A stretch of 64,000 nt of DNA from a virus (lineage: Duplodnaviria > Heunggongvirae > Uroviricota > Caudoviricetes). Position 1 is the first letter of the stretch. The number at the start of each line of letters is the position of its first letter. The DNA lies in the IMG/VR virus record IMGVR_UViG_3300028025_004880. The stretch is one strand, 5' to 3'. Below, in pieces: positions 19,001 through 64,000 of the stretch. The position numbers and the translations under genes were made by a program. The notes beneath the pieces were generated by a model, which was given only the letters and a program-made list of their open reading frames with translations, was not told where the DNA came from and did no database searches.

Positions 19001-22000
19001 TACAAATTAAAGATGCAATCACTGGTATTGATCGCTTTAAAAACGGATTTATCGTTGACCAATTTACTGGTCATGGAATAGGCGATGTTAAGAATGAGGA
19101 TTACAGAGTTTCTATTGATACTGTCAATAGAGAACTTCGCCCAATGCACGAAACTAATGCCGTAGCAATTGTTGAGGATCTAGAATCTGCAGCACAGCGT
19201 GTCAACTCAGGATATGCAAAAACTGGCGACATTATTTCTTTACCATACACTAAAGAACCATTCATCTTCAACCCAAATGCAACAAGAACAATTGATGTTA
19301 ACCCATATAAAATTGGCGCATTCAAAGGTGAGATAATTTTAAATCCAGAAAGCGATGTTTGGAAAGACACTGAACGTAGACCAGACTTAACTGTTGTTGA
19401 CGATAATGGATACGATGCTATTCGCTTTATGGCTGAACAGCTTGGTGTTACTGGAACACAGTGGGGTGAGTGGCAAACTAACTGGACAGGTATCTCTACT
19501 GCAACTTCAACATGGCAAACTGGTAATCCAAACGCACGTCGTCAAACTGTTACTGGCTTCGAGCAAACAGTTACTACACAAACAGGAACATCCTCTAGAG
19601 AAGGAATTCAAACATCATTAACTGGCACAACTAACGCAGTTGATTATGGTGATCGTGTAGTTGATATTTCTTACGCACCATACATGCGTGCAAGACCTAT
19701 TGTTTATGTAGCAAAAAATCTGAAGGCGCAAACTAAATTTTATGCATTCTTTGATGGTAGATCTATCAGTCAATTTATTAAACCAGCGGACGTGTTTAAA
19801 GTTAATTTAGCAACTGGTGCTAATAAAATGATTTTTGATCCTGCGCAATTGACAGAAAATATTTTAACTGACAGTATCGCTAGAACAGAGAATGGTATTG
19901 TTCAACCAGCATTTAGCGTTGGTGACGTAGTAGAAAATGAAACACATACACCAACAAACATTACTAGCATTTCGCATATAACCAATGTGCTTGGCGCATC
20001 TTCGTTCACAATATCCGTAGCTTCTGCGACGCAAATAAAACCTGGACACTTTGTTCAACTTTACAACTTGGGTCCATCTAGAGTGATCGCTTCAACTAAT
20101 ACGTTGTTTGCTGATCAAGTTAGAGGAAATTCTACAATAATTGATTACACACTTAATACCAGCAGAGAATTAAATTACAGAATCTTTAAAGTAACCAATG
20201 TATCTGGAACAACACTGACATTGGCTGATCCGAATGGCGCAACTATTCCAGCATTTAGTGCATATAATACTGCAGCATATAACAATGGCGATGGTGGTAA
20301 AGTAAAACGTCTAACAGCTTCTGGTGTTGTTGCATTTGCTGGTGCGGTAACTACTTACACTACTGTGAATAATGTAGTATATCCATCTGATATGGAAATT
20401 CATGTTGTAAATATTAAAAATGGATTCGCTCCTGGTGATGTTTTACAAGGAACCACTGATATAGAGATTGGTATTAAAAATCGTGTAGACCTTGAGTTAA
20501 TAAATGGTACAGGTGTTGGTTTATTGCCAACAATGAAAGTGGTTGGCGATTCCATTAAGACTGATATTTGGGGATCTGCTGTTGGGGTGTATAATCTTCC
20601 CGAGGCAACATTCAAATCAGGTGAAAGAACATTTAAACTAATTGACAATATTTCTAACAGCGATGCAGACTTTGATTCGAAGGGGTCTGCTTTCTACATC
20701 TCATCTGGAACTACACTCGCAAAAGAAAGAACGATTGTTAATTCAAGAGATGTTCGTTTCGTTCAAGATAGACTTTATGAAGAAATACCAGTACGTAGAA
20801 CATCGACATCTACACGTGTGCTGTATTCATATTGGACAGGACATGATCCAGTTGCGCAAACATTCACAGTAAGTTCACTTGGTGGTGCGTTTGTTACTGG
20901 TGTTGATGTGTATTTCCAAGAAGCTGGCAATCGCCCAATTTCTATTGAGTTGAGAACAACTAATAATGGAGTGCCATCATCTAAGATCGTACCTCTAACT
21001 GAAGTTACTAAATCTCCGCAAGAAGTTAACACTTCAGAAAATGGATCTGTACCTACGAGATTTGAATTCGCATCGCCTGTATATTTACAAGATGCTGAAA
21101 CATATGCTCTTATCGTTAAGACTGATGAGCCAGGATGTCAAATCTTTGTTTCTGAATTGGGTCAAAGCGACATTATAACAAACAACATTGTAACATCGCA
21201 ACCATTAACAGGATCTCTATTCTTATCACAGAATACACAAGAGTTCCAAATTAATCCGTTACTAGATCTGAAGTTTACACTATATCAAGCAAAATTTGAT
21301 ACATCAGCTACGCTTACTGCTTCGTTTAAAGCAGTGCCACCAACTACTATTAATTTAGATGTAAATCCGTTTGAGATTTCAAAGGGTACTGCGAAAATTC
21401 GTGTTTCTGCTAAAAATCATGGATTTGCTGCTGGCGATAAAGTTGTCATTAGTCATGTACCGATTGGTAACTACGGAACGAATGATCCAGAATTAGGAAT
21501 TCCTTCTACATTATTGAATGGTATACAAACTGTAATCGCAGATGGACTTTCTGATAATAACTTTGTGTTTGAAATTGCTACACAAGACAATTTATCTCCT
21601 CCTAATTTATTGCTTGCGAAAAAAGCCACTGGACCCGTGCAAACTACACTAGCTACATTGGTAAAGGGTAACTATGGTGGTTCAGGAATTAAGATTAGTA
21701 GACAACTAAGCGCAGATCAAATCTACGTTAAGACTGCAGATTTAACATTCCCTGAAACAACTCTTAGATATAAAGTAAGCGCAGAAAATGCAGCAGGAAC
21801 TGCATCTCCATTTGCTTCTATTGTTACTAACTCTGACTATATCTTCGACACAAGAAAAGTTGTAAAATCTTTAGAAAACCAATTTGTTAACGTGGTGACA
21901 GGTGCTATTCGTCCTTCACTAAGATTACAAGCAGAACTATCATCTACCAATGAGAATGTATCGCCGATAATTGACATGCAAAAAATTACAACATATGTTG

Positions 22001-22776
22001 TAAAGAATTTGGTTAATGATGTGCAAGAATTTGATATCAACGTAAGTGATATTGACAAGCGAATTTTATTGAACAATACAATAACATCTTCACTAACATT
22101 CGCAAACGCTACATCAACAACATGTACAATATTAACTGATGATGACGCTGCAGATAATTTACTATCAACTATTACACCTGGAAAATTTATCCAAATAGAA
22201 AATGCCAGCATCGATCTAAATGGTACTGGACCTGTCGGCACTTCAACAGGAAAATACCATGTTAAGAGTGTTGTAGTTTCATCTGATACTGTTGATTCTG
22301 GTGATGCTGAGGGCGATAAGGTATTGGTTACTTTGTCTGGTCAATTTAATGCAACAGGAACTATTGCAACTAATACACAAGGTTCGACATTCGCGATTAG
22401 CGTATTGGATAAATTCTTGTCAGATAATGCAGCAGTAGGTTGCAGCAATGCAGCAAATTATGTTACTAGAGCTTTATCATTATCTTCTCCTGCAGATTCG
22501 TTTAAAATTATATTTGACGCAAACTTGCCTGAAGGAACTACCTTGAACGTGTTGTATAAAACATGGTCTAATCCTGTTGAACTAAATAATGTTCAATACG
22601 AAAGCACAGGGTTCTCTAAATCAACATCAGATGCACGTGATGTATTCAGTGAAAGAATGATAACAATTGAAAACATTGCTCTGTTTAAAAATATTATTGT
22701 GAAGTTGGTATTAAAATCCAACCATCCTGTGTATGTTCCGAAACTTAAAAACTTAAGAGTGGTTGCTTATTCATAA
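16057..22776 (+). CDS. giant virion structural protein (2239 aa), a baseplate- or fibre-associated protein taking the place of gp9-gp12
   Basis: Single uninterrupted ORF. Thr/Ser/Asn/Gly-rich beta-type composition. It sits in the position where T4 encodes gp9-gp12. Conserved-looking N-terminus NPYYDDYADEDLFLRVLFRPGYAVQARELTQAQTILQ. Confidence 0.6.
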   Translation: MTINFNVNPYYDDYADEDLFLRVLFRPGYAVQARELTQAQTILQKQVSRLGDHIFKNGSMVIPGGVNVDNQVHFAKLEDLYQGIAVKSYLTQFVDKVITGTTSGLKAVVVDTSECACVLADEKEIATLYYKIDGTGDDDTTKRFIPGEQLIAYEVDNQTTTNYRLATNQTGDLVVNIRGFGDTGLVGTTYTNNPIKDVLGYGYVVEVEAGIYYIDGFFVRNEELHLYIGRFSTDTTARVGFSVTETIVTPEDDGALNDNAQGTNNFAAPGAHRYKIELSLAKKQLLTTDEDRFIELVRVKQGRVQQILSKSSYAELEKTFARRTFDESGSYEVNKFKLSAFEHLQDANNPLGIYTATDGGNEDKFVVEIDPGKAYVQGYEIESVAGQYLSLNKARDAATGHILSLNNQPVATPVGNYVLVRNIYNYPDFSTFSTVYLVKKLNASGGAAPSAADVIGTAKVRSFQLHNGDYATPIFKLSLFDIKIDAGYSFENHVKSIVSGLSGSTNFTCNIVSNNKQLTGSATSATNTTAVTGTGTKFTSELVADDVIFIDGVQAGTLASTPTNNAALTLSANSAVAKTAGIVSVFRAKIFEPDSQALIFKIGYESIKTLLGFDGSAYSLNETSSKVRRIFGTKTAADNKIEYTLNTNLETFPSDLDISNYLLYNTSTNAVVAITPADVTITVNNTKVEISGLTNGTIYRLIATVTQANTEGSAKEKILATNTEYITGQKTVINKIIPLAKNDLLKIDSIIMNAGDFTGNTFTTGIDVTNRFTLDDGQRDTHYTNGSLVLKPGEAVPSGALRVVYKYFNHGGTGDYFSVDSYTNSINNNPTFNYEDIPSYSVKNADGKVDTIYLHDVIDYRPCIGGNNTSFNEIPVIGNEMTTDIAYYLPRFDKIVLDSVGRFNVITGVPSANPQEPLDPKDGMVLASVMIPAYTKSVSDIKFYQRDNRRYTMRDIGDLERRISNLEYYVSLNLLETETAQLQIKDAITGIDRFKNGFIVDQFTGHGIGDVKNEDYRVSIDTVNRELRPMHETNAVAIVEDLESAAQRVNSGYAKTGDIISLPYTKEPFIFNPNATRTIDVNPYKIGAFKGEIILNPESDVWKDTERRPDLTVVDDNGYDAIRFMAEQLGVTGTQWGEWQTNWTGISTATSTWQTGNPNARRQTVTGFEQTVTTQTGTSSREGIQTSLTGTTNAVDYGDRVVDISYAPYMRARPIVYVAKNLKAQTKFYAFFDGRSISQFIKPADVFKVNLATGANKMIFDPAQLTENILTDSIARTENGIVQPAFSVGDVVENETHTPTNITSISHITNVLGASSFTISVASATQIKPGHFVQLYNLGPSRVIASTNTLFADQVRGNSTIIDYTLNTSRELNYRIFKVTNVSGTTLTLADPNGATIPAFSAYNTAAYNNGDGGKVKRLTASGVVAFAGAVTTYTTVNNVVYPSDMEIHVVNIKNGFAPGDVLQGTTDIEIGIKNRVDLELINGTGVGLLPTMKVVGDSIKTDIWGSAVGVYNLPEATFKSGERTFKLIDNISNSDADFDSKGSAFYISSGTTLAKERTIVNSRDVRFVQDRLYEEIPVRRTSTSTRVLYSYWTGHDPVAQTFTVSSLGGAFVTGVDVYFQEAGNRPISIELRTTNNGVPSSKIVPLTEVTKSPQEVNTSENGSVPTRFEFASPVYLQDAETYALIVKTDEPGCQIFVSELGQSDIITNNIVTSQPLTGSLFLSQNTQEFQINPLLDLKFTLYQAKFDTSATLTASFKAVPPTTINLDVNPFEISKGTAKIRVSAKNHGFAAGDKVVISHVPIGNYGTNDPELGIPSTLLNGIQTVIADGLSDNNFVFEIATQDNLSPPNLLLAKKATGPVQTTLATLVKGNYGGSGIKISRQLSADQIYVKTADLTFPETTLRYKVSAENAAGTASPFASIVTNSDYIFDTRKVVKSLENQFVNVVTGAIRPSLRLQAELSSTNENVSPIIDMQKITTYVVKNLVNDVQEFDINVSDIDKRILLNNTITSSLTFANATSTTCTILTDDDAADNLLSTITPGKFIQIENASIDLNGTGPVGTSTGKYHVKSVVVSSDTVDSGDAEGDKVLVTLSGQFNATGTIATNTQGSTFAISVLDKFLSDNAAVGCSNAANYVTRALSLSSPADSFKIIFDANLPEGTTLNVLYKTWSNPVELNNVQYESTGFSKSTSDARDVFSERMITIENIALFKNIIVKLVLKSNHPVYVPKLKNLRVVAYS

Positions 22777-25874: not shown

Positions 25875-28800
25875 ATGGCAAAAAAGTTAATATACACTGG
25901 ATATACACTGGATACCGTAAATAATACCATTCAAATTCCAGGAAATATCAGACCGAACAGATTGTTGTTGATGACTGATGTGACAAACAATCAGATTATC
26001 TACAACTTCGCAGATCCTACGCTTGGATATGAGTCATTTAACTTTTCGGAGCAACAAGAAGCAACTACTTATGTTCTGACTGCAGACTTGTCAACTCTTG
26101 GTTGTTTGGATGACGACGAAGTTCAAATCTTCATTGAAGAAGATCATGCGAAAATTGGCTTCGAAGAAGCAATGATCGACCCAGTTAATAAACTCCGTGT
26201 TTCAACTCCAGGCAACTTGATCGATACCGACTTTGAGTATGGTCTACAAGGAACTAAGTGGGAAACCTTACAAACTGTTCAAAATATTCCAACAATTTAT
26301 TCTTCTGGCGGTGACGTTCCACTAGAAGGATTGAGATCAATTACTACAACAGCTGCTTCTAAAGTTGTCAAAGTAACTTTAAATCAAGGTACTGATCTTA
26401 AACTTGGCGACCCAATCGTTGTGCTTGGTGTTACACTATCTCTAGCTGAAGGCGCATTCCTAATTACTGGCGTTTCCTCTTCTACAGAATTTTTCTATGA
26501 GATCGACCAAGCAGCATCAAGAACAGAAGTTATTTCTGGTTCTTATACGACAGTTACCCAAGCAAAATTTTTCGAAGGTTCAGCATTACCAATCGATGAA
26601 TCAGATGGTCTAGGTATTGTAACAGACGCTGCAGCTGGCAATTCTCTTCTTACTATTGGTTGCCCAGAAGTTCATGGTTTAAATCCTAGAACTAAAGTTT
26701 ATCTTAGAAATACTATCGGACCAAAATCATTAGTAATAGCAAATGCAACTGCAACTGCTGCAGACGGAAGACCAACTGTCGATATTTCTCCAGCTATCGT
26801 AACTACTGCATCAGTTGATGCCACACTTATAACAAATAGAGGTGGATTTTTAGAGTTCCCAGTTGTTACATGGGATTGGACATCTACATATAATTTGTAT
26901 CTAAGTCCAGGAATAGTCGATGTTGATACAGATCAAATTACTTGGACAGCTCATGGCTTAAGAGATAACTATTGTCTTGTGTTCCAAACACAAACTCGTA
27001 ACCTATCTACAGGTGGCATGGTTGACGGAACAGTCTATTATGTTAAACGAGTTACAGACAACACTTTCCAATTATGTACCGACTACGGAACATTGGCCAG
27101 CGTTGTTAATCTTACTGCGCTAGACATTACACGTGGTCATCCAAGACTAGGATTGGTTTACAAAGTTGAGCAGAAAAACGGCACAGAACGTGCGACTGCA
27201 TTCTTCAATAGAAATAATACAGTAAACACAAATGGTGTAACCAGAAACGAAGCATCGCAAACATACAGCGGAACACAAGTAAACTACTTGGTTGATCTTA
27301 CAACTACATATGGTGTAGGAAATGTCCCTTGGGCACTTACACTTTCACAGGTAAACTTCTCTTCATCTGCAGGCACTTTTGCTGGTTCTGGTGTAAACAT
27401 ATTCTTCGGTGATGGTACACCTACAGGTCGCGTAAATTCTCAACGTGTCGGTGCTGCTGGTGCTGGATCTGGATCAATATTCCCAAATCTTGCCATTAAC
27501 ACTGCAATTTTCCAAGGTAATGGAACATCTTACAATGGTGTTGGAACAACTGCAGGTAGATACTACTTCGGCTATGGATTGAACCCAGATGGTGGTATGA
27601 CAACCAAAGACAAATTCGGTAACCCAACATCTAACTGGTCAGTTCAACAATTTTTCTCTGGTCAGTTCCGTCCTTCCTCATTGAACTTGAATCATTCTGG
27701 TAGCGATTTCGCAACAACTCAATTCGGATTAGGTGGTAATGGTTCTCGACTAATCGCTTTCCAAAGCAGAACACCTGATAGTGCATATACAAATAGTGCA
27801 GATGGTTATTCCTTCTTACCGAACCAACGTCTAAATGGACGCTTTGGTACAGGTGGTCACAAGTACGGTAACGCTGCATCATCGACAAACAATTTTGGTA
27901 TTATTAATACCAACTACACCGATGCAGGTTTATCTGTATTCTCTGGTAACAGTACTCATGTTTACTACATGTTTGCCAATGATATTCCATCTAACTTCCG
28001 TAATAGTATATTCCAAGCAGGGCACGGATACGCCAACAACGATTTGTGTGAAGTTACAGTTACTAACTATACAACAAGCAATAGATTTGAATTTGTTGAC
28101 AGTACTGGTAATAGCATTCCTATTGCTTCATCAACTTTTGCTGCTAGAATTACTGTAGTTACAGAAGATTTGTTTAAACTTCAACCAACTCAAGCACCAA
28201 ATACTGACGATATTTCTAACTATCCTGCAGCCTTTGTTGTTAGTGTTCAGAAAATAAACCCAACATACAACTCAATCTTTGTTGCAAACCACAAAATCAC
28301 ATCAACAAGCGATGCGACGTTTACAACTCAAGGAACAGCGCCATCGCCATTAACAAATAACCAATCACTTCGTGTTGCACGTTTGAATGATAATCGTCTT
28401 ATCTTTAAACAAGCGTCTGGCGCACCAGCGACAGCTGTAACATCAGCCTTTGGTAATACATCTAATGCTGCAACTGACTTTAACATAAACTTCCAAACTC
28501 CACTTGGTCTAGACCCTTCTGTTGCCTCTATTACTAAAGTTGAATATCGTGGCGACTTTAGAAATTCCACAGAATTCGTTGTGTTAAAGTTTTACAACGC
28601 TGATGGAACTACAGTAAATAGCACGTTTAATATTGGTAACGTGGCACCGAAGGCATTTACTTCTGCCTTCCAGACAGCAACAAACTGGACATCTAAAGAC
28701 GTCTCTGCATTGTTAAGAACTGATGGTGGGTTTAAGGGTATTCGTGTTCAGGTTGACCCAACATCTGATGTTAACGCAGCTCCTGCAGGTATGAGTAACT

Positions 28801-31403
28801 GGTGGGAACTACGATTTACTGTTAGCGCATCTTCAGAAGATATCCGCTTAACTACACAGGGTGTTGGTCAACAAACAATTACTTTGGTAAATCAAGTCGG
28901 CGCATATGATGGCGCATATCCAATTCAAAGCGTCCCCGCAGCTGATGGTGGTAAGTCTTTTGTGCTTCAAGCGCCATTCCAAGTTGTGAAGAGAACATAC
29001 AGTATTGTATCGGCAAACGTCGATACAGCCAACGATATTATTACTACCTCTGCAACAGCGGATCATAATCTAATCTTGGGTGAGCAGATTGAATATGATC
29101 GCAATGGCAATACTGCTATTATTGCTGATGAAGCAAGATACGTAATTCCGATTACTGACAAGACTTTCCGTCTAGCAACTTCTGTGCAAGATGCTATTGA
29201 TGGTAACTATGTTCAAATTAATGCGCCATCTGGAACTCACTTCTTTAGATCTGCTAACATTGTTAAAGGTCTTGCGGGTGTTGGTACAGTGGCAGGAACA
29301 GTAAATCAGAAAACTATTACTGGAACATCAACTAAATTCCTAACAGACTTTAAGAAGGGCGATAACCTCTACATGTTTGTTGGTGGTCGTATGCGTAAGT
29401 TTACCGTTGATCTAGTGTTTACTGATACATCTATGTCTATTCTAGAATCTGTTCAGGCTACTACTGCGTCTTCAAAATACTTCTTGAAAACAACAGTAAA
29501 CCTACGTCCTGATGGATATAACTTACACAAGTCCTTCGATGGTGGTGTTGATATTACTGCAGGTACTTCTCCAAATAGTAAGATCGTTCGTCAATCTCGT
29601 AAGTATTTCCGTTACCAATCTGGTAAAGGTATTCAAAACTCTTTCGCGATTAACTTCTCGCCAGCTAAAACACTGGCTAAGTTGACATATAACACAGGAA
29701 CAAACCTTATTACTGCAATTACGCAAGAACCACATAATCTTGCAGTTAATGATAGTATTACAATTCAAGATGCGGTAACAACAACAGGAACTAACTTCTA
29801 TAATGGTCAGTTCCTAATTAATTCAATTATTGATCCGTTTACTTTTACAGTAACAGCTGGTGGTCAAATCCTTCAATCGATTGCTTCTGGATTCCCAGAA
29901 TACTACAGAAATGAATGGCGTGATTCATATATTCGTGCGGGTATGTTTGATGATCAGAACGGATTCTTCTTTGAGTATGATGGTCAAGAAATTTATGTTG
30001 TTCGTCGTTCTTCAACACTACAGCTCTCTGGTGTAGTTGCGGCAACTAAAAACTCTCAAGTTATTGAGGGAACTAATACAAGTTTCCAAGGACAAATAGT
30101 TACAGGCGATTACATCTCTATTCGTGGTTCTTCGTATAAAGTTGTTTCGATCCAATCTGATAGTCGTTTAATTATTCAACCAGCATATCGTGGTGCATCT
30201 TCAACGCAAGTTAAAATCACCAAGATGGTTGATGTTAGAATACCAAGAACTGAGTGGAACCTAGATCGTGCCGATGGACTTGGTCCATCAGGTTATATCT
30301 TCAACCCACATAAGATTCAGATGTGTTACGCTGACTATTCATGGTATGGTGCTGGTAAAATTCGTTTCGGATTTAAAGATCGTTATGGACACGTGTTCTA
30401 CTTCCATGAATTTATCCACAACAACAGATTGAACGAATCATACTTCCGCTCAGGTAACTTACCTGGACGTTATGAGATCGACAATGGTGATGATCCTACA
30501 TCTTCACCTACACTATTCCACTTCGGTACTTCTGTTATTATGGATGGTTTGTTCTCTGATGACGGAGCATATAAATTCTCTGCTATCTCTAAGCCATACG
30601 TATTCGCCAACGGAGTAACAGGAACAGTTACAACAAATGCAGTATCGGTCTTTGAGCAAATTACACTACGTGGTAAACGTGTATATGTGTACACTCTTGG
30701 TGTGAGCGCTGCCGATGCTGGTAAAGTTACACAGGGTCAGTTGATCCGTGATGCTTCAGGTGTGTTACCTACTGCTACCTACATTACGCAGGTTAAAGTG
30801 CTTGGCGCTGCATCGAAAATTTATACAAACTATCCAGCCACTGCCGTTGTTCCAGATATTGGAACATATGTGGACGTAGCTTCAGGAATTGTTTGTACTT
30901 TCGGTGAGATATCCGCAACTGACTTGACAAGACCACAGCCAATTATATCGATTCGACTAGCCCCATCTGTTGATTCTTCATTAGTTGGATTCTTAGGTGA
31001 GCGTGAAATTATTAATAGAATGCAGGTTATTCTTGATTCTGTTTCTATCACTACATCGAAAGAAATTGACTTGTTCCTAGTATTGAATGGTCAACCTTCT
31101 AATCTTGTGTTTACGAATGTGGGAACTCCTTCGTTGTCACAGTTTATTGATCACAATACTGGCGACTCTGTTGCTGGTGGTGTTACTCTATATGTGGGTA
31201 AAGTCAGTGGTAATACAACATCTTCCTTCGAACTAAAAGGATTAGTTGACTTGGGTAACTCTATTTTGGGCGGTGATGGTATTTTCCCTTCTGGTCCAGA
31301 TTTGTTAACATTATTGTGTCAACCTACAAATACTACGACCATTACTTCTTCTTCGCCGTTTATTGTATCAGGAAAACTTTCTTGGTCTGAGTCACAAGCA
31401 TAA
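25875..31403 (+). CDS. giant virion structural protein 2 (1842 aa)
   Basis: Uninterrupted ORF with Thr/Ser/Gly/Asn-rich beta-type composition. N-terminus YTLDTVNNTIQIPGNIRPNRLLLMTDVTNNQIIYNF loosely follows the same gp17-N-like pattern. AAGGAAATGAAAGCATGG RBS. Confidence 0.6.
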   Translation: MAKKLIYTGYTLDTVNNTIQIPGNIRPNRLLLMTDVTNNQIIYNFADPTLGYESFNFSEQQEATTYVLTADLSTLGCLDDDEVQIFIEEDHAKIGFEEAMIDPVNKLRVSTPGNLIDTDFEYGLQGTKWETLQTVQNIPTIYSSGGDVPLEGLRSITTTAASKVVKVTLNQGTDLKLGDPIVVLGVTLSLAEGAFLITGVSSSTEFFYEIDQAASRTEVISGSYTTVTQAKFFEGSALPIDESDGLGIVTDAAAGNSLLTIGCPEVHGLNPRTKVYLRNTIGPKSLVIANATATAADGRPTVDISPAIVTTASVDATLITNRGGFLEFPVVTWDWTSTYNLYLSPGIVDVDTDQITWTAHGLRDNYCLVFQTQTRNLSTGGMVDGTVYYVKRVTDNTFQLCTDYGTLASVVNLTALDITRGHPRLGLVYKVEQKNGTERATAFFNRNNTVNTNGVTRNEASQTYSGTQVNYLVDLTTTYGVGNVPWALTLSQVNFSSSAGTFAGSGVNIFFGDGTPTGRVNSQRVGAAGAGSGSIFPNLAINTAIFQGNGTSYNGVGTTAGRYYFGYGLNPDGGMTTKDKFGNPTSNWSVQQFFSGQFRPSSLNLNHSGSDFATTQFGLGGNGSRLIAFQSRTPDSAYTNSADGYSFLPNQRLNGRFGTGGHKYGNAASSTNNFGIINTNYTDAGLSVFSGNSTHVYYMFANDIPSNFRNSIFQAGHGYANNDLCEVTVTNYTTSNRFEFVDSTGNSIPIASSTFAARITVVTEDLFKLQPTQAPNTDDISNYPAAFVVSVQKINPTYNSIFVANHKITSTSDATFTTQGTAPSPLTNNQSLRVARLNDNRLIFKQASGAPATAVTSAFGNTSNAATDFNINFQTPLGLDPSVASITKVEYRGDFRNSTEFVVLKFYNADGTTVNSTFNIGNVAPKAFTSAFQTATNWTSKDVSALLRTDGGFKGIRVQVDPTSDVNAAPAGMSNWWELRFTVSASSEDIRLTTQGVGQQTITLVNQVGAYDGAYPIQSVPAADGGKSFVLQAPFQVVKRTYSIVSANVDTANDIITTSATADHNLILGEQIEYDRNGNTAIIADEARYVIPITDKTFRLATSVQDAIDGNYVQINAPSGTHFFRSANIVKGLAGVGTVAGTVNQKTITGTSTKFLTDFKKGDNLYMFVGGRMRKFTVDLVFTDTSMSILESVQATTASSKYFLKTTVNLRPDGYNLHKSFDGGVDITAGTSPNSKIVRQSRKYFRYQSGKGIQNSFAINFSPAKTLAKLTYNTGTNLITAITQEPHNLAVNDSITIQDAVTTTGTNFYNGQFLINSIIDPFTFTVTAGGQILQSIASGFPEYYRNEWRDSYIRAGMFDDQNGFFFEYDGQEIYVVRRSSTLQLSGVVAATKNSQVIEGTNTSFQGQIVTGDYISIRGSSYKVVSIQSDSRLIIQPAYRGASSTQVKITKMVDVRIPRTEWNLDRADGLGPSGYIFNPHKIQMCYADYSWYGAGKIRFGFKDRYGHVFYFHEFIHNNRLNESYFRSGNLPGRYEIDNGDDPTSSPTLFHFGTSVIMDGLFSDDGAYKFSAISKPYVFANGVTGTVTTNAVSVFEQITLRGKRVYVYTLGVSAADAGKVTQGQLIRDASGVLPTATYITQVKVLGAASKIYTNYPATAVVPDIGTYVDVASGIVCTFGEISATDLTRPQPIISIRLAPSVDSSLVGFLGEREIINRMQVILDSVSITTSKEIDLFLVLNGQPSNLVFTNVGTPSLSQFIDHNTGDSVAGGVTLYVGKVSGNTTSSFELKGLVDLGNSILGGDGIFPSGPDLLTLLCQPTNTTTITSSSPFIVSGKLSWSESQA

Positions 31404-57893: not shown

Positions 57894-58055
57894 ATGAATG
57901 AGCAATGGGAGTCTTTTACTGACAACGAACTGTATATCCTCTGTTTTGGATATGGTATTGAATCTGAGTGCGTTATGCTTGGATCTCGTCTGATGAATCG
58001 CGGACACGTAGAACTTGTGTTGACGAACTTCGAACGTGATTTGGCTTTCGCTTGA
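57894..58055 (+). CDS. small early protein (53 aa)
   Basis: AGGAG RBS then ATG. MNEQWESFTDNELYILCFGYGIESECVMLGSRLMNRGHVELVLTNFERDLAFA. Its stop codon is embedded in the -35 of the next promoter. Confidence 0.35.
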   Translation: MNEQWESFTDNELYILCFGYGIESECVMLGSRLMNRGHVELVLTNFERDLAFA

Positions 58056-58080
58056 CATTAATTCAAGGATCAGGTATAAT
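58052..58080 (+). promoter_or_regulatory. sigma70-type early promoter cassette P3 (TTGACA-17-TATAAT)
   Basis: TTGACA at 58052-58057, spacer TTAATTCAAGGATCAGG, TATAAT at 58075-58080. Near-identical to P6 (61889..). ATG at 58087 is only 7 nt downstream, so the mRNA may be leaderless. Confidence 0.65.
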
Positions 58081-58086
58081 TATATT

Positions 58087-60354
58087 ATGAATACACACTT
58101 TAACTCAAAAGACCTATTGGCAAAACTTCTTGCCACCGAAAACCTTACGGTGCTTCGGGCACCTGTTCGTACCGCATGTTTTGACGTCGAGTCAAGAACA
58201 TTGACGCTACCGCAATGGAAAGAAATGTCCAATGAGGTGGAAGAAATGCTCATCGGTCATGAGGTAGGACATGCCTTGTTTACAACTAATGAGTACATCA
58301 AAGCCGAAACCTATACACGTTCTTTTCATGGTTACATGAATGTTTGTGAAGATGTTCGCATTGAAAAGAAAATTAAAAACAAGTATCCAGGTCTCCGTCG
58401 CACCTTTATCCAAGGATACAAAGAACTCAACGAAAAAGATTTCTTTGACATCGCAGGTAAAGACCTCACCAAAATTTTATTGATCGATAAAATAAATCTA
58501 TATTTTAAATGTGGCATCAACTGTGGTGTTCGTTTTACACCTGCTGAAATGGATCTAGTCCGTAAGGTTGAGCGCACAGATACCATGGCTGATGTTTATG
58601 ATATCGCCAACGAAATCTATACCTACGAAAAGGGTGAGCGCAAAAAGCGTCGCCAAGAAATGCGTGAAGCACGCAAACTTCTTAACTTGGATGCTGAAGA
58701 TGCCAAGGAAGAACAAGAAGAACTAGAGGAAATGCTCAATCAAGAATATGATGATGAAGCACTTGACGATGATGAATTAGATGACTATGATGAGGGCGAC
58801 ACCTCAGAAGAATCTAGCGATTCTGATTCTGAAGAATCATCTGCAACTCCTCCGTCTTCAGCAGGTGATCCATGGCTCGACAAAGATGAAGAGAAAAAAG
58901 AACCAGAAATAACTGAAGACGATGAAATTAAGTCACACACTGATGACGCATTTTATCGCAGAGTTGAAGAATATGCTGACACAGATACGGAAGTCCATAT
59001 CTATGAACCCAAGATTTTTGATAACATCTATACTGATACAGTTATTGGATACAAACGTGTTATCGCAGAACTATCGGCAGGTCGTGTTCAACGTGATATT
59101 CGCTACTATACTTCAGCTGAAGGTGTTTTTGATAAAGCAAGCCAAGCAAAGGCACTCGCCAGACACAATTCAAATGTTGAGAAATATAAATCAGAAAATT
59201 CTCGTGTTGTGAATTATCTTGTAAAAGAGTTTGAAATGCGTAAATCTGCCACTCAATATAAGAGAACGCAGACAGCGAAGATCGGACAATTGAATACAAG
59301 CAAACTTGCAGTTTACCAACTCACCGATGACCTATTCCGTCGCATACAAATTGTGCCTGATGCTAAAAATCACGGTATGATGTTTTTGCTTGACTGGTCA
59401 GGTTCTATGATGGAATGTATCGAAGATACTCTGAAGCAAGTTATCAGTCTTGCTACTTTCTGTCAACGTGCCATGATCCCATATCAAGTATTCGCATTCT
59501 CAAACGACTATGAAACTTCTTCACGTAGAGATCGCAAATTCTACTCTAGGGAAGAAGTCAAAGCGATGGGTGCGGGAAGACAGTTTATTGCTTGTGGTGG
59601 TTTTAACTTGATCGAGTTGTTTAGCAACAAGATGACAACAAGCGAATTTAATCAGCAAGTTTCTCTCATGCTTGACTCACCATGGCATCTAGATAGGAAC
59701 TATGGACTAGGTGCTACGCCATTGAACGAAGCATTATTGTATATGATTGAAACACAAATCAGCAAGTTTATGCGTGCGAATAATGTTGAAAAATTCTCGT
59801 TCATTACATTGACAGATGGTCAAGGTAGTGGCTTACAAACTGCGGATCGCGAACATCTCTATGACTCACGCTACGACTACGATACACATAAAAACATAAA
59901 AGTTAAAAACTACATGCGTGATCCAATCACTCATCGTGAGTATGCTCTTACTCGCCACAATAACACATCTGTTCTTTTACAAATTATTAAAGACAGATAT
60001 AATTGCTCAGTTGTTGGCTTCCACGTGTTGAGGAATAGCAAACGAAATGTTCAACAATTCCTTGACGATAATGTGTTTTCGGGTAATGAGTCATCTTCAG
60101 ATTGGGCACGGAAACATATTATGATGGATGAGATTCGTGTTGATTTGCGCAAAGAAGGTTTCTACAGTCTTACTGAAACTTCTCATGATGAACTATTCCT
60201 CATCTCCCAAACTAAACTCTCAATCGATGAGGGCGAACTTGAAGTCAAAGACAATATGAACTCCAAAGCGATTGCAAAGCAGTTTGAGAAGTATATGAAT
60301 GTGAAGAAAACCAGTCGTATCCTGTTGAACCGATTTGTGGGGTTGGTGGCTTAA
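58087..60354 (+). CDS. HExxH metallopeptidase-like N-domain + acidic linker + C-terminal von Willebrand factor A (vWA) domain protein. Resembles the DUF2201-type vWA partner of MoxR ATPases and is CobT-like in role
   Basis: HEVGH zincin motif at 58258-58272. Asp/Glu/Ser-rich low-complexity tract at about 58650-58960. vWA MIDAS motif LLDWSGSM (D-x-S-x-S) at 59388-59408. The track ORF from 58036 starts with TTG inside the upstream gene; the ATG at 58087 follows promoter P3. A MoxR-type AAA+ gene lies one gene downstream. Confidence 0.7.
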   Translation: MNTHFNSKDLLAKLLATENLTVLRAPVRTACFDVESRTLTLPQWKEMSNEVEEMLIGHEVGHALFTTNEYIKAETYTRSFHGYMNVCEDVRIEKKIKNKYPGLRRTFIQGYKELNEKDFFDIAGKDLTKILLIDKINLYFKCGINCGVRFTPAEMDLVRKVERTDTMADVYDIANEIYTYEKGERKKRRQEMREARKLLNLDAEDAKEEQEELEEMLNQEYDDEALDDDELDDYDEGDTSEESSDSDSEESSATPPSSAGDPWLDKDEEKKEPEITEDDEIKSHTDDAFYRRVEEYADTDTEVHIYEPKIFDNIYTDTVIGYKRVIAELSAGRVQRDIRYYTSAEGVFDKASQAKALARHNSNVEKYKSENSRVVNYLVKEFEMRKSATQYKRTQTAKIGQLNTSKLAVYQLTDDLFRRIQIVPDAKNHGMMFLLDWSGSMMECIEDTLKQVISLATFCQRAMIPYQVFAFSNDYETSSRRDRKFYSREEVKAMGAGRQFIACGGFNLIELFSNKMTTSEFNQQVSLMLDSPWHLDRNYGLGATPLNEALLYMIETQISKFMRANNVEKFSFITLTDGQGSGLQTADREHLYDSRYDYDTHKNIKVKNYMRDPITHREYALTRHNNTSVLLQIIKDRYNCSVVGFHVLRNSKRNVQQFLDDNVFSGNESSSDWARKHIMMDEIRVDLRKEGFYSLTETSHDELFLISQTKLSIDEGELEVKDNMNSKAIAKQFEKYMNVKKTSRILLNRFVGLVA

Positions 60355-60393: not shown

Positions 60394-60422
60394 TTGACTT
60401 TAATTTGGAAATAAGATATAAT
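60394..60422 (+). promoter_or_regulatory. sigma70-type early promoter cassette P4 (TTGACT-17-TATAAT)
   Basis: AAAGTGCTTGACTTTAATTTGGAAATAAGATATAAT is near-identical to P1 over about 30 nt. TATAAT at 60417-60422. ATG at 60455. Confidence 0.65.
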
Positions 60423-60454: not shown

Positions 60455-60661
60455 ATGTTAGCATATTGCGATTACATGGCAAAAGTCATTAATGAGTCTT
60501 TGAAAAAAGACGCCCATGTCTACGGAACTTTCGTGGATTCAGTGGGTAAAATAAATTGGGATCTTGGTGAGAATGGTGAATTCCTTTCTACGAAGAAAAC
60601 GATGACTGTCGTTGACAGAAATGGGAAAAATTATATTGTAACTGTCCAAGAAATGATTTGA
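60455..60661 (+). CDS. small early protein (68 aa)
   Basis: ORF downstream of P4 with an AGGGA RBS. Its stop codon lies inside the -35 of P5. Confidence 0.5.
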   Translation: MLAYCDYMAKVINESLKKDAHVYGTFVDSVGKINWDLGENGEFLSTKKTMTVVDRNGKNYIVTVQEMI

Positions 60662-60686
60662 CATTAATTCTTGTATGGGGTATAAT
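60658..60686 (+). promoter_or_regulatory. sigma70-type early promoter cassette P5 (TTGACA-17-TATAAT)
   Basis: TTGACA at 60658-60663, spacer TTAATTCTTGTATGGGG, TATAAT at 60681-60686. GGAG RBS and ATG at 60720. Confidence 0.65.
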
Positions 60687-60719: not shown

Positions 60720-61892
60720 ATGATGGCTAAAATTACTGAAGCCCAAATGATCGAGTTTGAAAATAAACTCAAGGAGATGTTTCCCGATGTCGCAACCAAC
60801 GGCACTGTCTCACGGAAAGAACTAATGGCTGTTCGTGATGAAGTTGGTGTTACATGGTATCCGACATGGTTGATGCAAACACAACTAAGTCGTGGTCTAT
60901 ATGCGATTCCTGGTGGATCTATTACAGCACCTGTAACAGACATTAGCAAATGGGATGCGCCTATTAAACAAAAGACGGAGTCTTACGTGGTTGATTTTAC
61001 AAATACTGATTCGTTAATCCCAAAGATCGACGGGAACTATGTTCCTTTCGGTAACCACAAAGATCTTGAACAAATTTGCGCAGCCAAGATATTCTATCCT
61101 GCATATATCTCAGGTCCAACTGGGAATGGCAAATCAACAACGATTGAACAAATTTGCGCCAAGCAAAGACGTGCGCTTATTCGTATCAACTTGAACACCA
61201 TGACTGATGAAGATCAGCTTATCGGAACTAAGACCCTCTTGAATGGCAACGTGGAGATTGTTGAAGGACCAGTGCTAATCGCTATGCGTACAGGATCTGT
61301 ATTGCTACTAGACGAGATTGACGCTGGCTCAGCAAACACTCTGTTGTGCCTACAACCAATTCTTGAGGGCAAACCCTATTACTTCAAACTTAAGAATGAA
61401 ATGATCATCCCTGCTCCTGGATTCACTGTGTTCGCTACGGCAAACACAAAGGGTAAGGGTAGCGATGATGGTCGTTACATCGGTACAAACGTCCTCAACG
61501 AAGCGTTTTTAGAGCGATTTGCGGTTACTTTCAACCAAGAGTACCCTGATGCAAAGGTCGAAAAACGGATCATTATGAACCTCATGAAGACTTACAATGC
61601 GGTTGATGAGGACTTTGCCGATAACATGGTCAAGTGGGCAGACGCTATCCGTCGCACCTTTGACGCTGGTGGCGTAGATGAAACTATCACTACACGTCGC
61701 CTCATCCATATCGTTCGTGCCTTCTCTATTTTCAAGACCCCAAAGAAGGCTATTGAACTCTGTACAAACCGATTTGACGACTCTACAAGGATCGCCTTCA
61801 ACGATTTGTTCGATAAGGTTTCAAGTGGTGAGTTGCAAGTTGAGGAAACACCTCCACAGGCGACCCCAGTGGAGCCTGTTGCAAGTGCTTGA
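60720..61892 (+). CDS. cobS: MoxR-family AAA+ ATPase (CobS-like) with an extra N-terminal domain of about 70 aa
   Basis: Walker A ISGPTGNGKSTT at about 61112-61140. Walker B VLLLDEIDAG at about 61291-61320. ...FATANTKG sensor region. Single AAA+ module of MoxR/CobS size (390 aa). Adjacent to a vWA protein. Confidence 0.85.
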   Translation: MMAKITEAQMIEFENKLKEMFPDVATNGTVSRKELMAVRDEVGVTWYPTWLMQTQLSRGLYAIPGGSITAPVTDISKWDAPIKQKTESYVVDFTNTDSLIPKIDGNYVPFGNHKDLEQICAAKIFYPAYISGPTGNGKSTTIEQICAKQRRALIRINLNTMTDEDQLIGTKTLLNGNVEIVEGPVLIAMRTGSVLLLDEIDAGSANTLLCLQPILEGKPYYFKLKNEMIIPAPGFTVFATANTKGKGSDDGRYIGTNVLNEAFLERFAVTFNQEYPDAKVEKRIIMNLMKTYNAVDEDFADNMVKWADAIRRTFDAGGVDETITTRRLIHIVRAFSIFKTPKKAIELCTNRFDDSTRIAFNDLFDKVSSGELQVEETPPQATPVEPVASA

Positions 61893-61917
61893 CTTTAATT
61901 CAAAAATCAGGTATAAT
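61889..61917 (+). promoter_or_regulatory. sigma70-type early promoter cassette P6 (TTGACT-17-TATAAT)
   Basis: CAAGTGCTTGACTTTAATTCAAAAATCAGGTATAATTATAT is a near-copy of P3. The -35 overlaps the MoxR stop codon. AGGAG RBS and ATG at 61965. Confidence 0.65.
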
Positions 61918-62656: not shown

Positions 62657-62666
62657 GTGTAATACA

Positions 62667-62700
62667 ACTGAGCATTCTTCCGAGTGCTCAGTTTTGTTTT
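62667..62700 (+). terminator. rho-independent terminator
   Basis: ACTGAGCATTC-TTCC-GAGTGCTCAGT (stem about 12 bp with one wobble) followed by TTTGTTTT. Confidence 0.7.
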
Positions 62701-62717: not shown

Positions 62718-62936
62718 TTGCTTTCATTACGATGGATTACCACATGGCTGTATATACTTGGGGGTTCGCTTTTAATCTTACTTGATACACCAATATGGAT
62801 ATGGGCATTTTTGAGCGCACATTTTATACTACTTTTCCTATCGATTAATATGCGTGATGTTAGATTGAAGATACAATACACTTTTCTAGTAGTTGTAGAC
62901 TTCTTTGTTATTGTCCACTTGTTTATTTTGAGGTGA
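62718..62936 (+). CDS. small hydrophobic membrane protein (72 aa), TTG start
   Basis: Two predicted transmembrane stretches (ITTWLYILGGSLLILL; IWIWAFLSAHFILLFLSI). GGAG RBS 8 nt upstream of the TTG. No in-frame ATG. Confidence 0.35.
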   Translation: MLSLRWITTWLYILGGSLLILLDTPIWIWAFLSAHFILLFLSINMRDVRLKIQYTFLVVVDFFVIVHLFILR

Positions 62937-62940
62937 CGTC

Positions 62941-63273
62941 TTGAACGATAAAGTTAAATTATCACAAACAGCTACTACGGGTGGCAGAAAATTTGATGGT
63001 GGTAAGCTACAATATGGCTTACTACCTCCACTTGCTCTAAAGGCAACTGTAGAGATTCTAACATTTGGTGCGGAGAAATACGAACCAGATAATTGGAAAC
63101 ATGTTCCAGATTCTAAGCGTAGGTACTTTGATGCTATGCAAAGACATCTATGGGCATGGAAAGAGGGCGAGCAAAATGATCCCGAAACTGGGAAGAACCA
63201 TTTGGCTCACGCAATGTGTTGTTTGATGTTTCTATATGAGCATGATATAAAATATAGTTTGGAGAAGAAATGA
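62941..63273 (+). CDS. conserved phage protein (110 aa), TTG start; resembles the N-terminal domain of phage dATP/dGTP-diphosphohydrolase-like proteins (uncertain)
   Basis: GGRKFDGGKLQYGLLPPLALKATVEILTFGAEKYEPDNWKHV is a motif I associate with a phage DUF family (K..D.GK...L.P......A.VL.FGA.KY...NW). GAGGTGA RBS before the TTG. Confidence 0.4.
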   Translation: MNDKVKLSQTATTGGRKFDGGKLQYGLLPPLALKATVEILTFGAEKYEPDNWKHVPDSKRRYFDAMQRHLWAWKEGEQNDPETGKNHLAHAMCCLMFLYEHDIKYSLEKK

Positions 63274-63446
63274 TTAAAATCGTAGCAGTTTTTCTTTTTG
63301 TGTTTGCTCTTTTCTACTTTGGTATCGAAGCATTTAATCGAAAGACCAATGTTGAGAAATGGGATGTCGCTAAAACATTCTCTTACAGTTTAGCATTGGC
63401 GCTGGCTGTTGTTGTATTTCTTGTTAGTATCGTTGTTTTATTTTAA
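63270..63446 (+). CDS. small membrane protein (58 aa)
   Basis: ATGA overlap with the upstream stop. MIKIVAVFLFVFALFYFGIEAF...LALALAVVVFLVSIVVLF gives two transmembrane helices. Below the track threshold. Confidence 0.35.
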   Translation: MIKIVAVFLFVFALFYFGIEAFNRKTNVEKWDVAKTFSYSLALALAVVVFLVSIVVLF

Positions 63447-63455
63447 GGATTTTAA

Positions 63456-64000
63456 ATGAAAAAAGTTTTTACACTTTCTATCTTGGCTGCTGCTATTCTT
63501 GCCAGTGGGTGTACTCGTATTGAGACAGGCGAAGTTGGTTTGCGTCGTGGCTTCGACAAGCAAGTTAAGACAGAAGAATTGCTTCCTGGCTCATTCAACC
63601 AAGTTATCATTGGTGAAGTTTTGACTTTCCCAGTGAAAGAAATCTCTGTCAAGGTTGAAGACATGACTCCATTGGCTAAAGATAACAGCACAATGAAAGA
63701 CTTCGACACATTGGTTACGTATAACATTAATCAAGCGCAGGTCGCCGAGATTTATAATGCCAAGAATCGTAGCTTCCATGCTATTCATAATGGTGATGTT
63801 TACTTGATGTATAACTATATCTTCAATGCTTCACGTAATGCCATCTACAAAGCTGCACGTAAGTATGAAGCATTAGAAATGGGCGATGCTCGTCAAGCCA
63901 TGGAAACTGAAATTAAAGAACAGATTATTAAAACATTGGCTGATGAAAAGCTGGATGGAACCATTGTTATCGGACAGGTTCTAATCCGCAATATCGTGCC
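63456..64000 (+). CDS. lipoprotein with an SPFH (Band-7 / HflK-HflC / prohibitin-like) domain; C-terminus beyond the window end
   Basis: Signal peptide and lipobox MKKVFTLSILAAAILASGC. SPFH-type N-terminal signature TRIETGEVGLRRGFDKQV...LLPGSFNQVIIGEVLTFPVKE, then coiled-coil-like KYEALEMGDARQAMETEIKEQI. ORF is open to position 64000. Confidence 0.6.
   Translation, partial: MKKVFTLSILAAAILASGCTRIETGEVGLRRGFDKQVKTEELLPGSFNQVIIGEVLTFPVKEISVKVEDMTPLAKDNSTMKDFDTLVTYNINQAQVAEIYNAKNRSFHAIHNGDVYLMYNYIFNASRNAIYKAARKYEALEMGDARQAMETEIKEQIIKTLADEKLDGTIVIGQVLIRNIV

Follow-up and report, generated by a model that had tools for sequence, protein, structure and literature searches.

The SPFH gene and its completion in relatives

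The stretch of DNA analysed here (the window; 64,000 nucleotides of IMG/VR record IMGVR_UViG_3300028025_004880, a member of the Caudoviricetes) ends inside an open reading frame (ORF) for a lipoprotein of the SPFH/Band 7 family, and directly ahead of this ORF lies a gene for a 58-residue protein with two transmembrane (TM) helices. The SPFH gene occupies 63456..64000 on the plus strand. It opens with an ATG at 63456, preceded at a distance of 6 nt by a Shine-Dalgarno sequence (AAGGA, 63445..63449, plus strand), and its frame stays open until it runs off the window end, leaving the 5' part of the gene, 181 of 266 codons plus 2 nt, in view. The translation reads MKKVFTLSILAAAILASGC followed by TRIETGEVGLRRGFDKQV...PGSFNQVIIGEVLTFPVKE. 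Pfam family Band_7 (PF01145) matches this fragment with E=1.4e-10; the score of 41.9 bits exceeds the gathering score of 23.6, and residues 21-180 align with profile positions 2-145 of 176. The PHROG profile phrog_200, labelled 'lipoprotein', matches at E=5.4e-20, with residues 1-180 on profile positions 81-256 of 379, and 4426 homologues are found in the databases. The ORF is a genuine gene, with a match far above chance.

Two related contigs carry the gene past the point at which the window breaks off. IMG/VR contig L009 is 97.4% identical in DNA to the window end over 1095 nt, and contig L104 is 98.8% identical to the window over 6731 nt, without gaps and in the same gene order. Both complete the ORF to 266 aa, and the SPFH protein of L104 shares 179 of 181 residues with the window fragment. 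The part of the protein that lies beyond the window reads PADSVVASANELVKAKNEYKTEEVKVATARKRNES...FKGQTLVINGVVTPTVATNQK. L104, a 162,609-bp contig deposited as ENA ERZ937681 from freshwater metagenome SRR3184713, probably holds nearly the whole genome of the phage population to which the window belongs.

A full-length relative of 267 aa that is 90% identical, P0005, served as a stand-in for the truncated protein in modelling and family searches, and it matches Band_7 at 58.8 bits over profile positions 2-174 of 176. An earlier note, made from the window alone, had described a signal peptide, a lipobox and the start of an SPFH domain; the translation is as quoted there, and the two profile matches bear the description out. 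It had also allowed for a completed ORF that lacks the SPFH core, which the completions in L009 and L104 and the near-full Band_7 coverage of P0005 show to be present.

Fold and placement in the SPFH family

Modelled with AlphaFold2 (AF2) on an alignment of 89 diverse family representatives, P0005 reaches a pLDDT of 92.6 and a pTM of 0.76; an earlier run on a shallow alignment of sequences 68-90% identical gave a pLDDT of 57.6 and was discarded. The model comprises a signal helix (residues 2-17), strands that begin at Cys19, an SPFH1 part that extends to about residue 70 and an alpha/beta SPFH2 part at 79-182. These are followed by a helix of 36 residues (184-219), a second helix (223-245) and an extended C-terminal tail. 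In the window, the combined SPFH1 and SPFH2 domain spans 63516..63995 on the plus strand (residues 21-180), as delimited by Pfam coordinates, the P0005 model and Foldseek matches. A coiled-coil-like continuation had been suspected within the window. The helices inside residues 1-181 belong instead to SPFH2, and the long first coiled coil (CC1) begins at about residue 184 of P0005, beyond the window end.

Searched against the PDB with Foldseek, the P0005 model aligns over its full length (230-260 columns) with protomers of all solved SPFH cages, at a probability of 1.00. The best PDB match is 9cz2_XA, an HflK/C chain in complex with FtsH (8e-13). Further matches are prohibitin (9o9z, 2e-12), HflK/C again (7vhq_E, 1.1e-11), QmcA-YbbJ (8z5g, 8.1e-09), stomatin (9z7u), erlin (9vvj) and flotillin (9bq2). 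As modelled, the protein has the full architecture of a cage protomer, which goes beyond a mere SPFH core.

This likeness does not extend to family membership. The protein shares 14-20% identity with HflK/C chains, and Foldseek scores prohibitin, stomatin, erlin and QmcA about as highly. An HflK/HflC orthologue was rejected on three grounds: no NCBIfam model matches P0005 at E<=0.1; each completed locus (L009, L104 and L106) holds a single Band_7 gene, with no adjacent K/C paralogue pair; and the predicted anchor is a lipid, not a TM segment. The label 'HflK/HflC-like' given to the ORF in the earlier note is therefore apt for the fold and for the predicted periplasm-facing topology, and fails as a statement of family. 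A phmmer search of P0005 against PDB sequences recovered no SPFH chain, only chance matches to FGFR3 kinase. The same program, run against 1.84 billion cluster representatives, returned 272 clusters at E<=1e-3, most of them about 260-290 aa long and the remainder shorter and apparently partial. Judged by these comparisons, the protein belongs to a compact, distinct SPFH subfamily.

Predicted lipid anchor and membrane side

The SPFH protein begins with MKKVFTLSILAAAILASG-C, which combines a basic n-region, a hydrophobic core and the lipobox LASGC. The lipoprotein signal peptide together with Cys19, the predicted lipidation site, is encoded at 63456..63512 on the plus strand; residues 1-18 hold MKK, the hydrophobic core and the lipobox residues L-A-S-G, and the Cys19 codon lies at 63510-63512. 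Export by Sec and lipidation at Cys19 are predicted from these features. Cys19 is invariant in 31 of 31 close relatives, and a lipobox is present in 77 of the 89 family representatives. The other 12 have a Cys-less N-terminal TM anchor, as do the cyanophage homologues of S-CREM1 and B3. Because TM anchors replace the lipobox in these 12 representatives, the comparison indicates that the family conserves anchoring at the N-terminus and a position of the SPFH body outside the cytoplasm, and the body of the window protein is predicted to be periplasmic. The residue that follows the lipobox cysteine (+2) is Thr in the window protein; it is Thr, Gly or Ser in 59 of the 77 lipobox representatives and never Asp.

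A conserved two-helix gene and probable partner

The gene ahead of the SPFH ORF lies at 63270..63446 on the plus strand, with 9 nt between its stop and the SPFH start. Its 58-aa product is a two-TM hairpin, in which TM1 (about residues 1-22) and TM2 (about 36-58, ending at the C-terminus) are joined by a basic loop, NRKTNVEKWDVAK. The protein has no Pfam, PHROG, NCBIfam or PADLOC match. In the phage loci inspected first, an ORF of 53-72 aa with two hydrophobic helices ends just ahead of the SPFH start in all cases. Among 88 loci, 86 have a two-TM ORF of 53-90 aa directly upstream of the SPFH gene, with a gap that is mostly 8-10 nt; of the two exceptions, L008 is a threshold artefact in which the two TM helices were merged into one segment. 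Within the T4-like group, the partner is always 58 aa long and free of insertions or deletions over 63 distinct variants, with the conserved pattern MI..w..F......fgI...R.....E.....K...YS............iViLF. In the reciprocal search, a Band_7 gene again comes directly after the genes of homologues 60-93% identical to the 58-aa protein.

The arrangement reaches well beyond this group: of seven independent phage lineages, six have a small two-TM gene ahead of the SPFH gene. These are the T4-like group of the window phage, BUCT-ZZ01, the cyanophages S-CREM1/B3, the Ackermannviridae (Det7/phiEa2809), Schitoviridae phage XC38, in which an 87-aa ORF overlaps the SPFH start, and Straboviridae phage AbTZA1, with a 90-aa ORF. 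Small proteins with at least two TM helices make up 12 of 114 (~10%) annotated neighbouring coding sequences, partners included, and on this background a binomial estimate gives about 6e-6 for six of seven lineages by chance. From this conserved adjacency, the product of the 58-aa ORF at 63270 is the likely partner. The conserved pairing of the two genes is new here.

A link to two small TM proteins just upstream had been proposed from the window alone. The very strong conserved adjacency backs it for the gene at 63270, and it falls for the one at 62718. The latter ORF (62718-62936) encodes a very hydrophobic protein of 72 aa, with a TTG start that a GGAG precedes by 9 nt; tblastn recovered no counterpart of it from related loci, it is uncalled in the 98.8%-identical L104, and it was rejected as a conserved partner. 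Its position holds differing small ORFs in relatives, such as a short TM ORF in L022, and looks like a variable slot.

Phage and cellular relatives

By tblastn, the SPFH family is present in 185-193 GenBank phage records. The closest isolate is Synechococcus phage BUCT-ZZ01 (L001, ON615601.1) at 46% identity, followed by the cyanophages S-CREM1, B3 and B23 (31-34%) and by Ackermannviridae of Salmonella, Escherichia and Erwinia (26-30%); Acinetobacter phages of three families also carry the family. In Ackermannviridae the proteins are annotated as 'lipoprotein', as 'SPFH domain band 7 family protein' and once as 'regulator of protease activity', and BFVD holds many phage and giant-virus Band 7 models. 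The SPFH lipoprotein family is thus already annotated in many phages, and finding it in the window is an expected annotation, not a surprise. SPFH ORFs of the T4-like phages 44RR, Aeh1 and RB43 were listed by Nolan et al. 2006 (PMC1524935); they are not among the tblastn matches of the window protein and, on that comparison, probably represent different SPFH subfamilies. In BUCT-ZZ01 the gene order is as in the window, with a 106-aa ORF, a 58-aa two-TM ORF and then the SPFH gene. Its lipobox is of proteobacterial type (SAAC followed by TRIETG), in contrast to the Cys-less anchor of other cyanophage homologues, which is odd for a phage recorded on Synechococcus.

Chromosomal homologues were sought in one genome per species. 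Five Bdellovibrio genomes, four of them complete chromosomes, hold copies 63-71% identical over the window fragment; the carriers include Bdellovibrio sp. HCB185ZH, HCB290, HCB288 and HCB-110. Copies are also present in Bacteriovorax and in metagenome-assembled genomes (MAGs) of Bdellovibrionota (L095-L101 for the Bdellovibrionota set), in Leptospiraceae/Spirochaetota MAG contigs (L092-L093; 75% identical) and, as a single copy at 57% identity, in a Noviherbaspirillum MAG. A rough neighbour-joining (NJ) tree, drawn without support values, groups the Bdellovibrionota copies in one clade beside the T4-like phage clades and nests the Leptospiraceae/Spirochaetota copies inside the phage clade. An identity of 63-71% between phage and cell seems unusually high and suggests fairly recent gene exchange, in one direction or the other, between these abundant freshwater phages and predatory bacteria. 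The Bdellovibrionota chromosomal homologues at this level of identity are new here, and the similarity to core genes of Bdellovibrionota might even hint at the phage host. On L103, a 5-kb contig binned as a Bdellovibrionota MAG, a Cys-less SPFH gene comes after a two-TM ORF of 55 aa, in almost the same layout as in S-CREM1; the contig is probably a piece of cyanophage DNA that was mis-binned into a bacterial MAG.

Genome context

The window comes from a T4-like freshwater myovirus that is uncultured. T4-type genes in it encode sheath, portal, major head protein, terminase, a UvsW-like helicase and gp46/47, its major capsid protein is ~62-63% identical to those of Methylophilales phage Melnitz and cyanomyoviruses, and its GC content is ~0.37. 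There is no close cultured relative, since megablast of the last 3 kb against GenBank phages returned nothing. The structural region also holds two very large ORFs, at 16057-22776 (2239 aa) and 25875-31403 (1842 aa). Scanned against Rfam, the 57-64 kb region yielded no more than snoRNA noise below threshold.

Four sigma70-type promoters upstream of the SPFH unit (58052-58090, 60394-60422, 60658-60686 and 61889-61917) share the motif GCTTGAC(T/A)TTAATT...AGGTATAAT, with 11-12 of 12 matches in the three that were scored, and probably constitute an early promoter family of the phage. The same region holds a gene for a 772-aa protein (58036-60354; phrog_459 'peptidase', CobT/vWA-like, with an acidic low-complexity middle) and one for a CobS-like AAA_5/CbbQ_C ATPase of 390 aa (60720-61892; phrog_249) that pairs with it. 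Each of these two genes is preceded by one of the probable early promoters. An intrinsic-terminator-like hairpin at 62666..62693 on the plus strand (12-bp stem plus T run) closes an upstream helix-turn-helix (HTH) gene, and the SPFH unit begins after it. The stem is preserved by compensatory changes in L022 and L106, and a conserved ribosome-binding stretch, CATTTGGAG, follows the hairpin.

The SPFH transcription unit comprises three genes, for a 110-aa diphosphohydrolase-domain protein, the 58-aa membrane protein and the SPFH lipoprotein. The first, at 62941..63273 on the plus strand, encodes a MazG-like dATP/dGTP diphosphohydrolase N-terminal domain (PF18909, 1.7e-35; phrog_801), and ends in an ATGA that also contains the start codon of the 58-aa gene. 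Present in only 11 of the related loci, it is a variable neighbour; its product also matches PHROGs labelled 'endolysin; inhibits RNA polymerase'. Downstream of the SPFH gene, L009 and L104 have a hairpin and then the genes for the gp45 clamp, gp44, gp62 and regA, and in L106 the SPFH gene is separated from gp45 by AhpC/redoxin, GDSL lipase and CMD genes. The locus can fairly be described as early or middle region, and with early-type promoters on one side and gp45, gp44, gp62 and regA on the other, the placement in the early region given in the earlier note is supported. L104 also carries HSP20, rubrerythrin and rubredoxin genes downstream.

Interpretation

With moderate confidence, we favour a reading in which the SPFH protein forms a lipid-anchored periplasmic ring or cage and the two-TM hairpin is its resident or organiser in the inner membrane. 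The 266-aa product would be exported by Sec and lipid-modified at Cys19. The chain would fold without a linker after the cysteine into SPFH1 and SPFH2, continue in two long helices and end in an extended C-terminal strand. The whole SPFH body would then lie in the periplasm, flat against the membrane and on the same side as in HflK/C. By analogy with every solved full-length SPFH protein, the protomers would most likely assemble into a homo-oligomeric ring or cage that fences off a patch of membrane. The hairpin protein (63270-63446) would be co-produced and would most likely reside in this patch or organise it, playing an NfeD-like role as in cellular SPFH operons, without homology to NfeD. 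During infection, such an assembly could plausibly stabilise or compartmentalise the envelope, or shield the small protein from host quality control.

Several results weigh against this reading. Under the E. coli rule, the +2 residues predict outer-membrane sorting by the Lol pathway, and an alpha-helical partner could then not share a bilayer with the lipoprotein. Acinetobacter phage AM24, the seventh lineage, has no small gene immediately upstream of its SPFH gene. A hidden Markov model (HMM) of the 58-aa proteins does not detect the small partners of the other lineages (E 0.6-77), which means that the partners are conserved only in architecture and position. The cellular homologues in the Bdellovibrionota loci inspected have no small two-TM ORF upstream, from which it follows that the small gene is not needed for the SPFH protein as such. 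In the literature, the function of phage SPFH proteins is stated as unknown (PMC7760394, PMC13239085). On the question of the membrane, the TM-anchored family members and the absence of a linker between the cysteine and the first strand argue for the inner one. A TM anchor can only sit in the inner membrane, and outer-membrane lipoproteins usually have disordered tethers.

A more specific version of the favoured reading is rather unlikely as a whole. It treats the SPFH lipoprotein and the hairpin as a minimal module of two genes, specific to phages, that six or more lineages have re-invented or swapped in. Early in infection, a periplasm-facing inner-membrane cage would either enclose host FtsH as a viral HflK/C surrogate or seal the membrane, guarding it from superinfecting genomes or from premature holin action, and NfeD would in that case be replaced by the hairpin as the enclosed subunit.

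In another account, the one put forward in the earlier note, the protein mimics HflK/C, its cage capturing or displacing host FtsH at the periplasmic face of the inner membrane and altering the turnover of membrane and regulatory proteins of host or phage. We consider this unlikely. The FtsH-bound HflK/C chain is the best structural match, a TM anchor of inner-membrane type is found in the 12 representatives noted above and in cyanophage homologues, and the predicted periplasmic orientation is that of HflK/C, whose topology and FtsH contacts have been described (PMC12624060). The account is weakened by the low identity to HflK/C, by the comparable scores of other SPFH families, by the lack of an NCBIfam match to HflK or HflC and by a single gene in place of a K/C heterodimer pair. 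A link to FtsH is topologically possible provided that the SPFH protein stays in the inner membrane. An outer-membrane location would argue against any FtsH role, and outer-membrane sorting, if real, would exclude the mimic.

That same sorting signal counts in favour of another account, also improbable in our estimate, in which the pair protects the envelope or excludes superinfection. The lipoprotein, possibly in the outer membrane, and the small inner-membrane protein would together block genome entry by later phages or lysis-from-without, in the general way of T4 Imm/Sp and T5 Llp. The small two-TM inner-membrane companion is reminiscent of T4 Imm, and the early-region context suits such a role. 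A candidate member of the subfamily, the SPFH protein of a Pasteurella prophage island, was detected in vesicles of the outer membrane (PMC9872710). Two genes from the SPFH gene of Ackermannviridae there are genes that carry the annotation 'superinfection exclusion'; the label is no more than an annotation, and T4-like loci do not share these neighbours. No homology to known exclusion proteins and no PADLOC match was seen, and an SPFH cage is not a known exclusion architecture.

The SPFH gene could also be a stand-alone acquired cellular gene (a moron), its adjacency to small ORFs functionally meaningless and its product acting alone as in Bdellovibrionota. This would accommodate the Bdellovibrio and Bacteriovorax homologues, 63-71% identical and without the small upstream ORF, the lack of homology among small ORFs of different lineages and the layout in AM24. 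It sits poorly with the recurrence of the pair in six of seven lineages against a background of ~10%, with gaps of only 8-10 nt or outright gene overlap, and with a fixed length of 58 aa and conserved residues over 63 variants, and we regard it as quite unlikely. Other assignments can be dismissed briefly: a spanin pair was rejected, the lipoprotein being large and globular (SPFH) and the inner-membrane protein lacking a periplasmic domain (Det7 has a separately annotated Rz-like spanin); a holin was judged unlikely for want of a charged C-terminal tail; and so was a virion protein, as virion proteomics of Kuttervirus Sajous1 yielded only 3 peptides for the homologous gp200 (PMC10892097).

SPFH cages (HflK/C, prohibitin, stomatin, erlin, flotillin and QmcA) are under intensive study at the structural level and their functions are poorly defined; those of phages have carried the label "function unknown" since 2006. 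Sequences of the family abound in freshwater viromes and form more than 4000 clusters at 90% identity. If the ring-and-hairpin reading is true, a small, homo-oligomeric, lipid-anchored and periplasm-facing SPFH protein with an obligate-looking partner of 58 residues would be an unusually simple system in which to ask what such a cage surrounds and what a virus uses it for. The question can be put to direct test in relatives that grow in culture, for example the Kuttervirus phages Det7 or CBA120 on Salmonella and E. coli. Through the minimal partner, which is conserved, and the connection with Bdellovibrionota, the old annotation of unknown function becomes open to experiment.

Comparison with known systems

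The top structural match is E. coli HflK/HflC (PDB 7vhq, 7wi3 and 9cz2), over ~250 columns. The phage protein shares with it the N-terminal membrane anchoring, the periplasmic SPFH body (predicted for the phage protein) and the order SPFH1, SPFH2, CC1, a second coiled coil (CC2) and C-terminal strand. It differs in being encoded by a single gene and in its predicted lipid anchor, whereas HflK and HflC form a heterodimeric pair with TM anchors. HflK, at 419 aa, is also much longer than the phage protein.

SPFH-NfeD operons (QmcA-YbbJ, PDB 8z5g; stomatin PH1511-PH1510; FloT-YuaF) likewise link an SPFH gene tightly, and in the same orientation, to a gene for a small membrane protein. The phage partner differs in having only two TM helices, without the NfeD/OB-fold (PF01957) and with no Pfam match. 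QmcA and the flotillins face the cytoplasm, unlike the phage SPFH protein, which is predicted to be exported.

Among viruses, the closest parallels are phage proteins that match the same PHROG 200 profile (Det7 gp58, CBA120 orf126, phiEa2809 NW77_081 and Sajous1 gp200). They share a length of ~260-270 aa, the lipobox, the SPFH domain, the coiled coil, the C-terminal strand and a small two-TM ORF just upstream. Their identity to the window protein is only 27-30%. They belong to Ackermannviridae, whereas the gene described here is carried by a T4-like phage, and CC2 and the tail of window-type proteins have diverged from those of the other family members. The SPFH lipoproteins of Bdellovibrionota have the same lipobox and start (GC followed by TRIETGEVG) and the same length, and differ in their ordinary chromosomal contexts, which are partly conserved between strains (for example, KatG).

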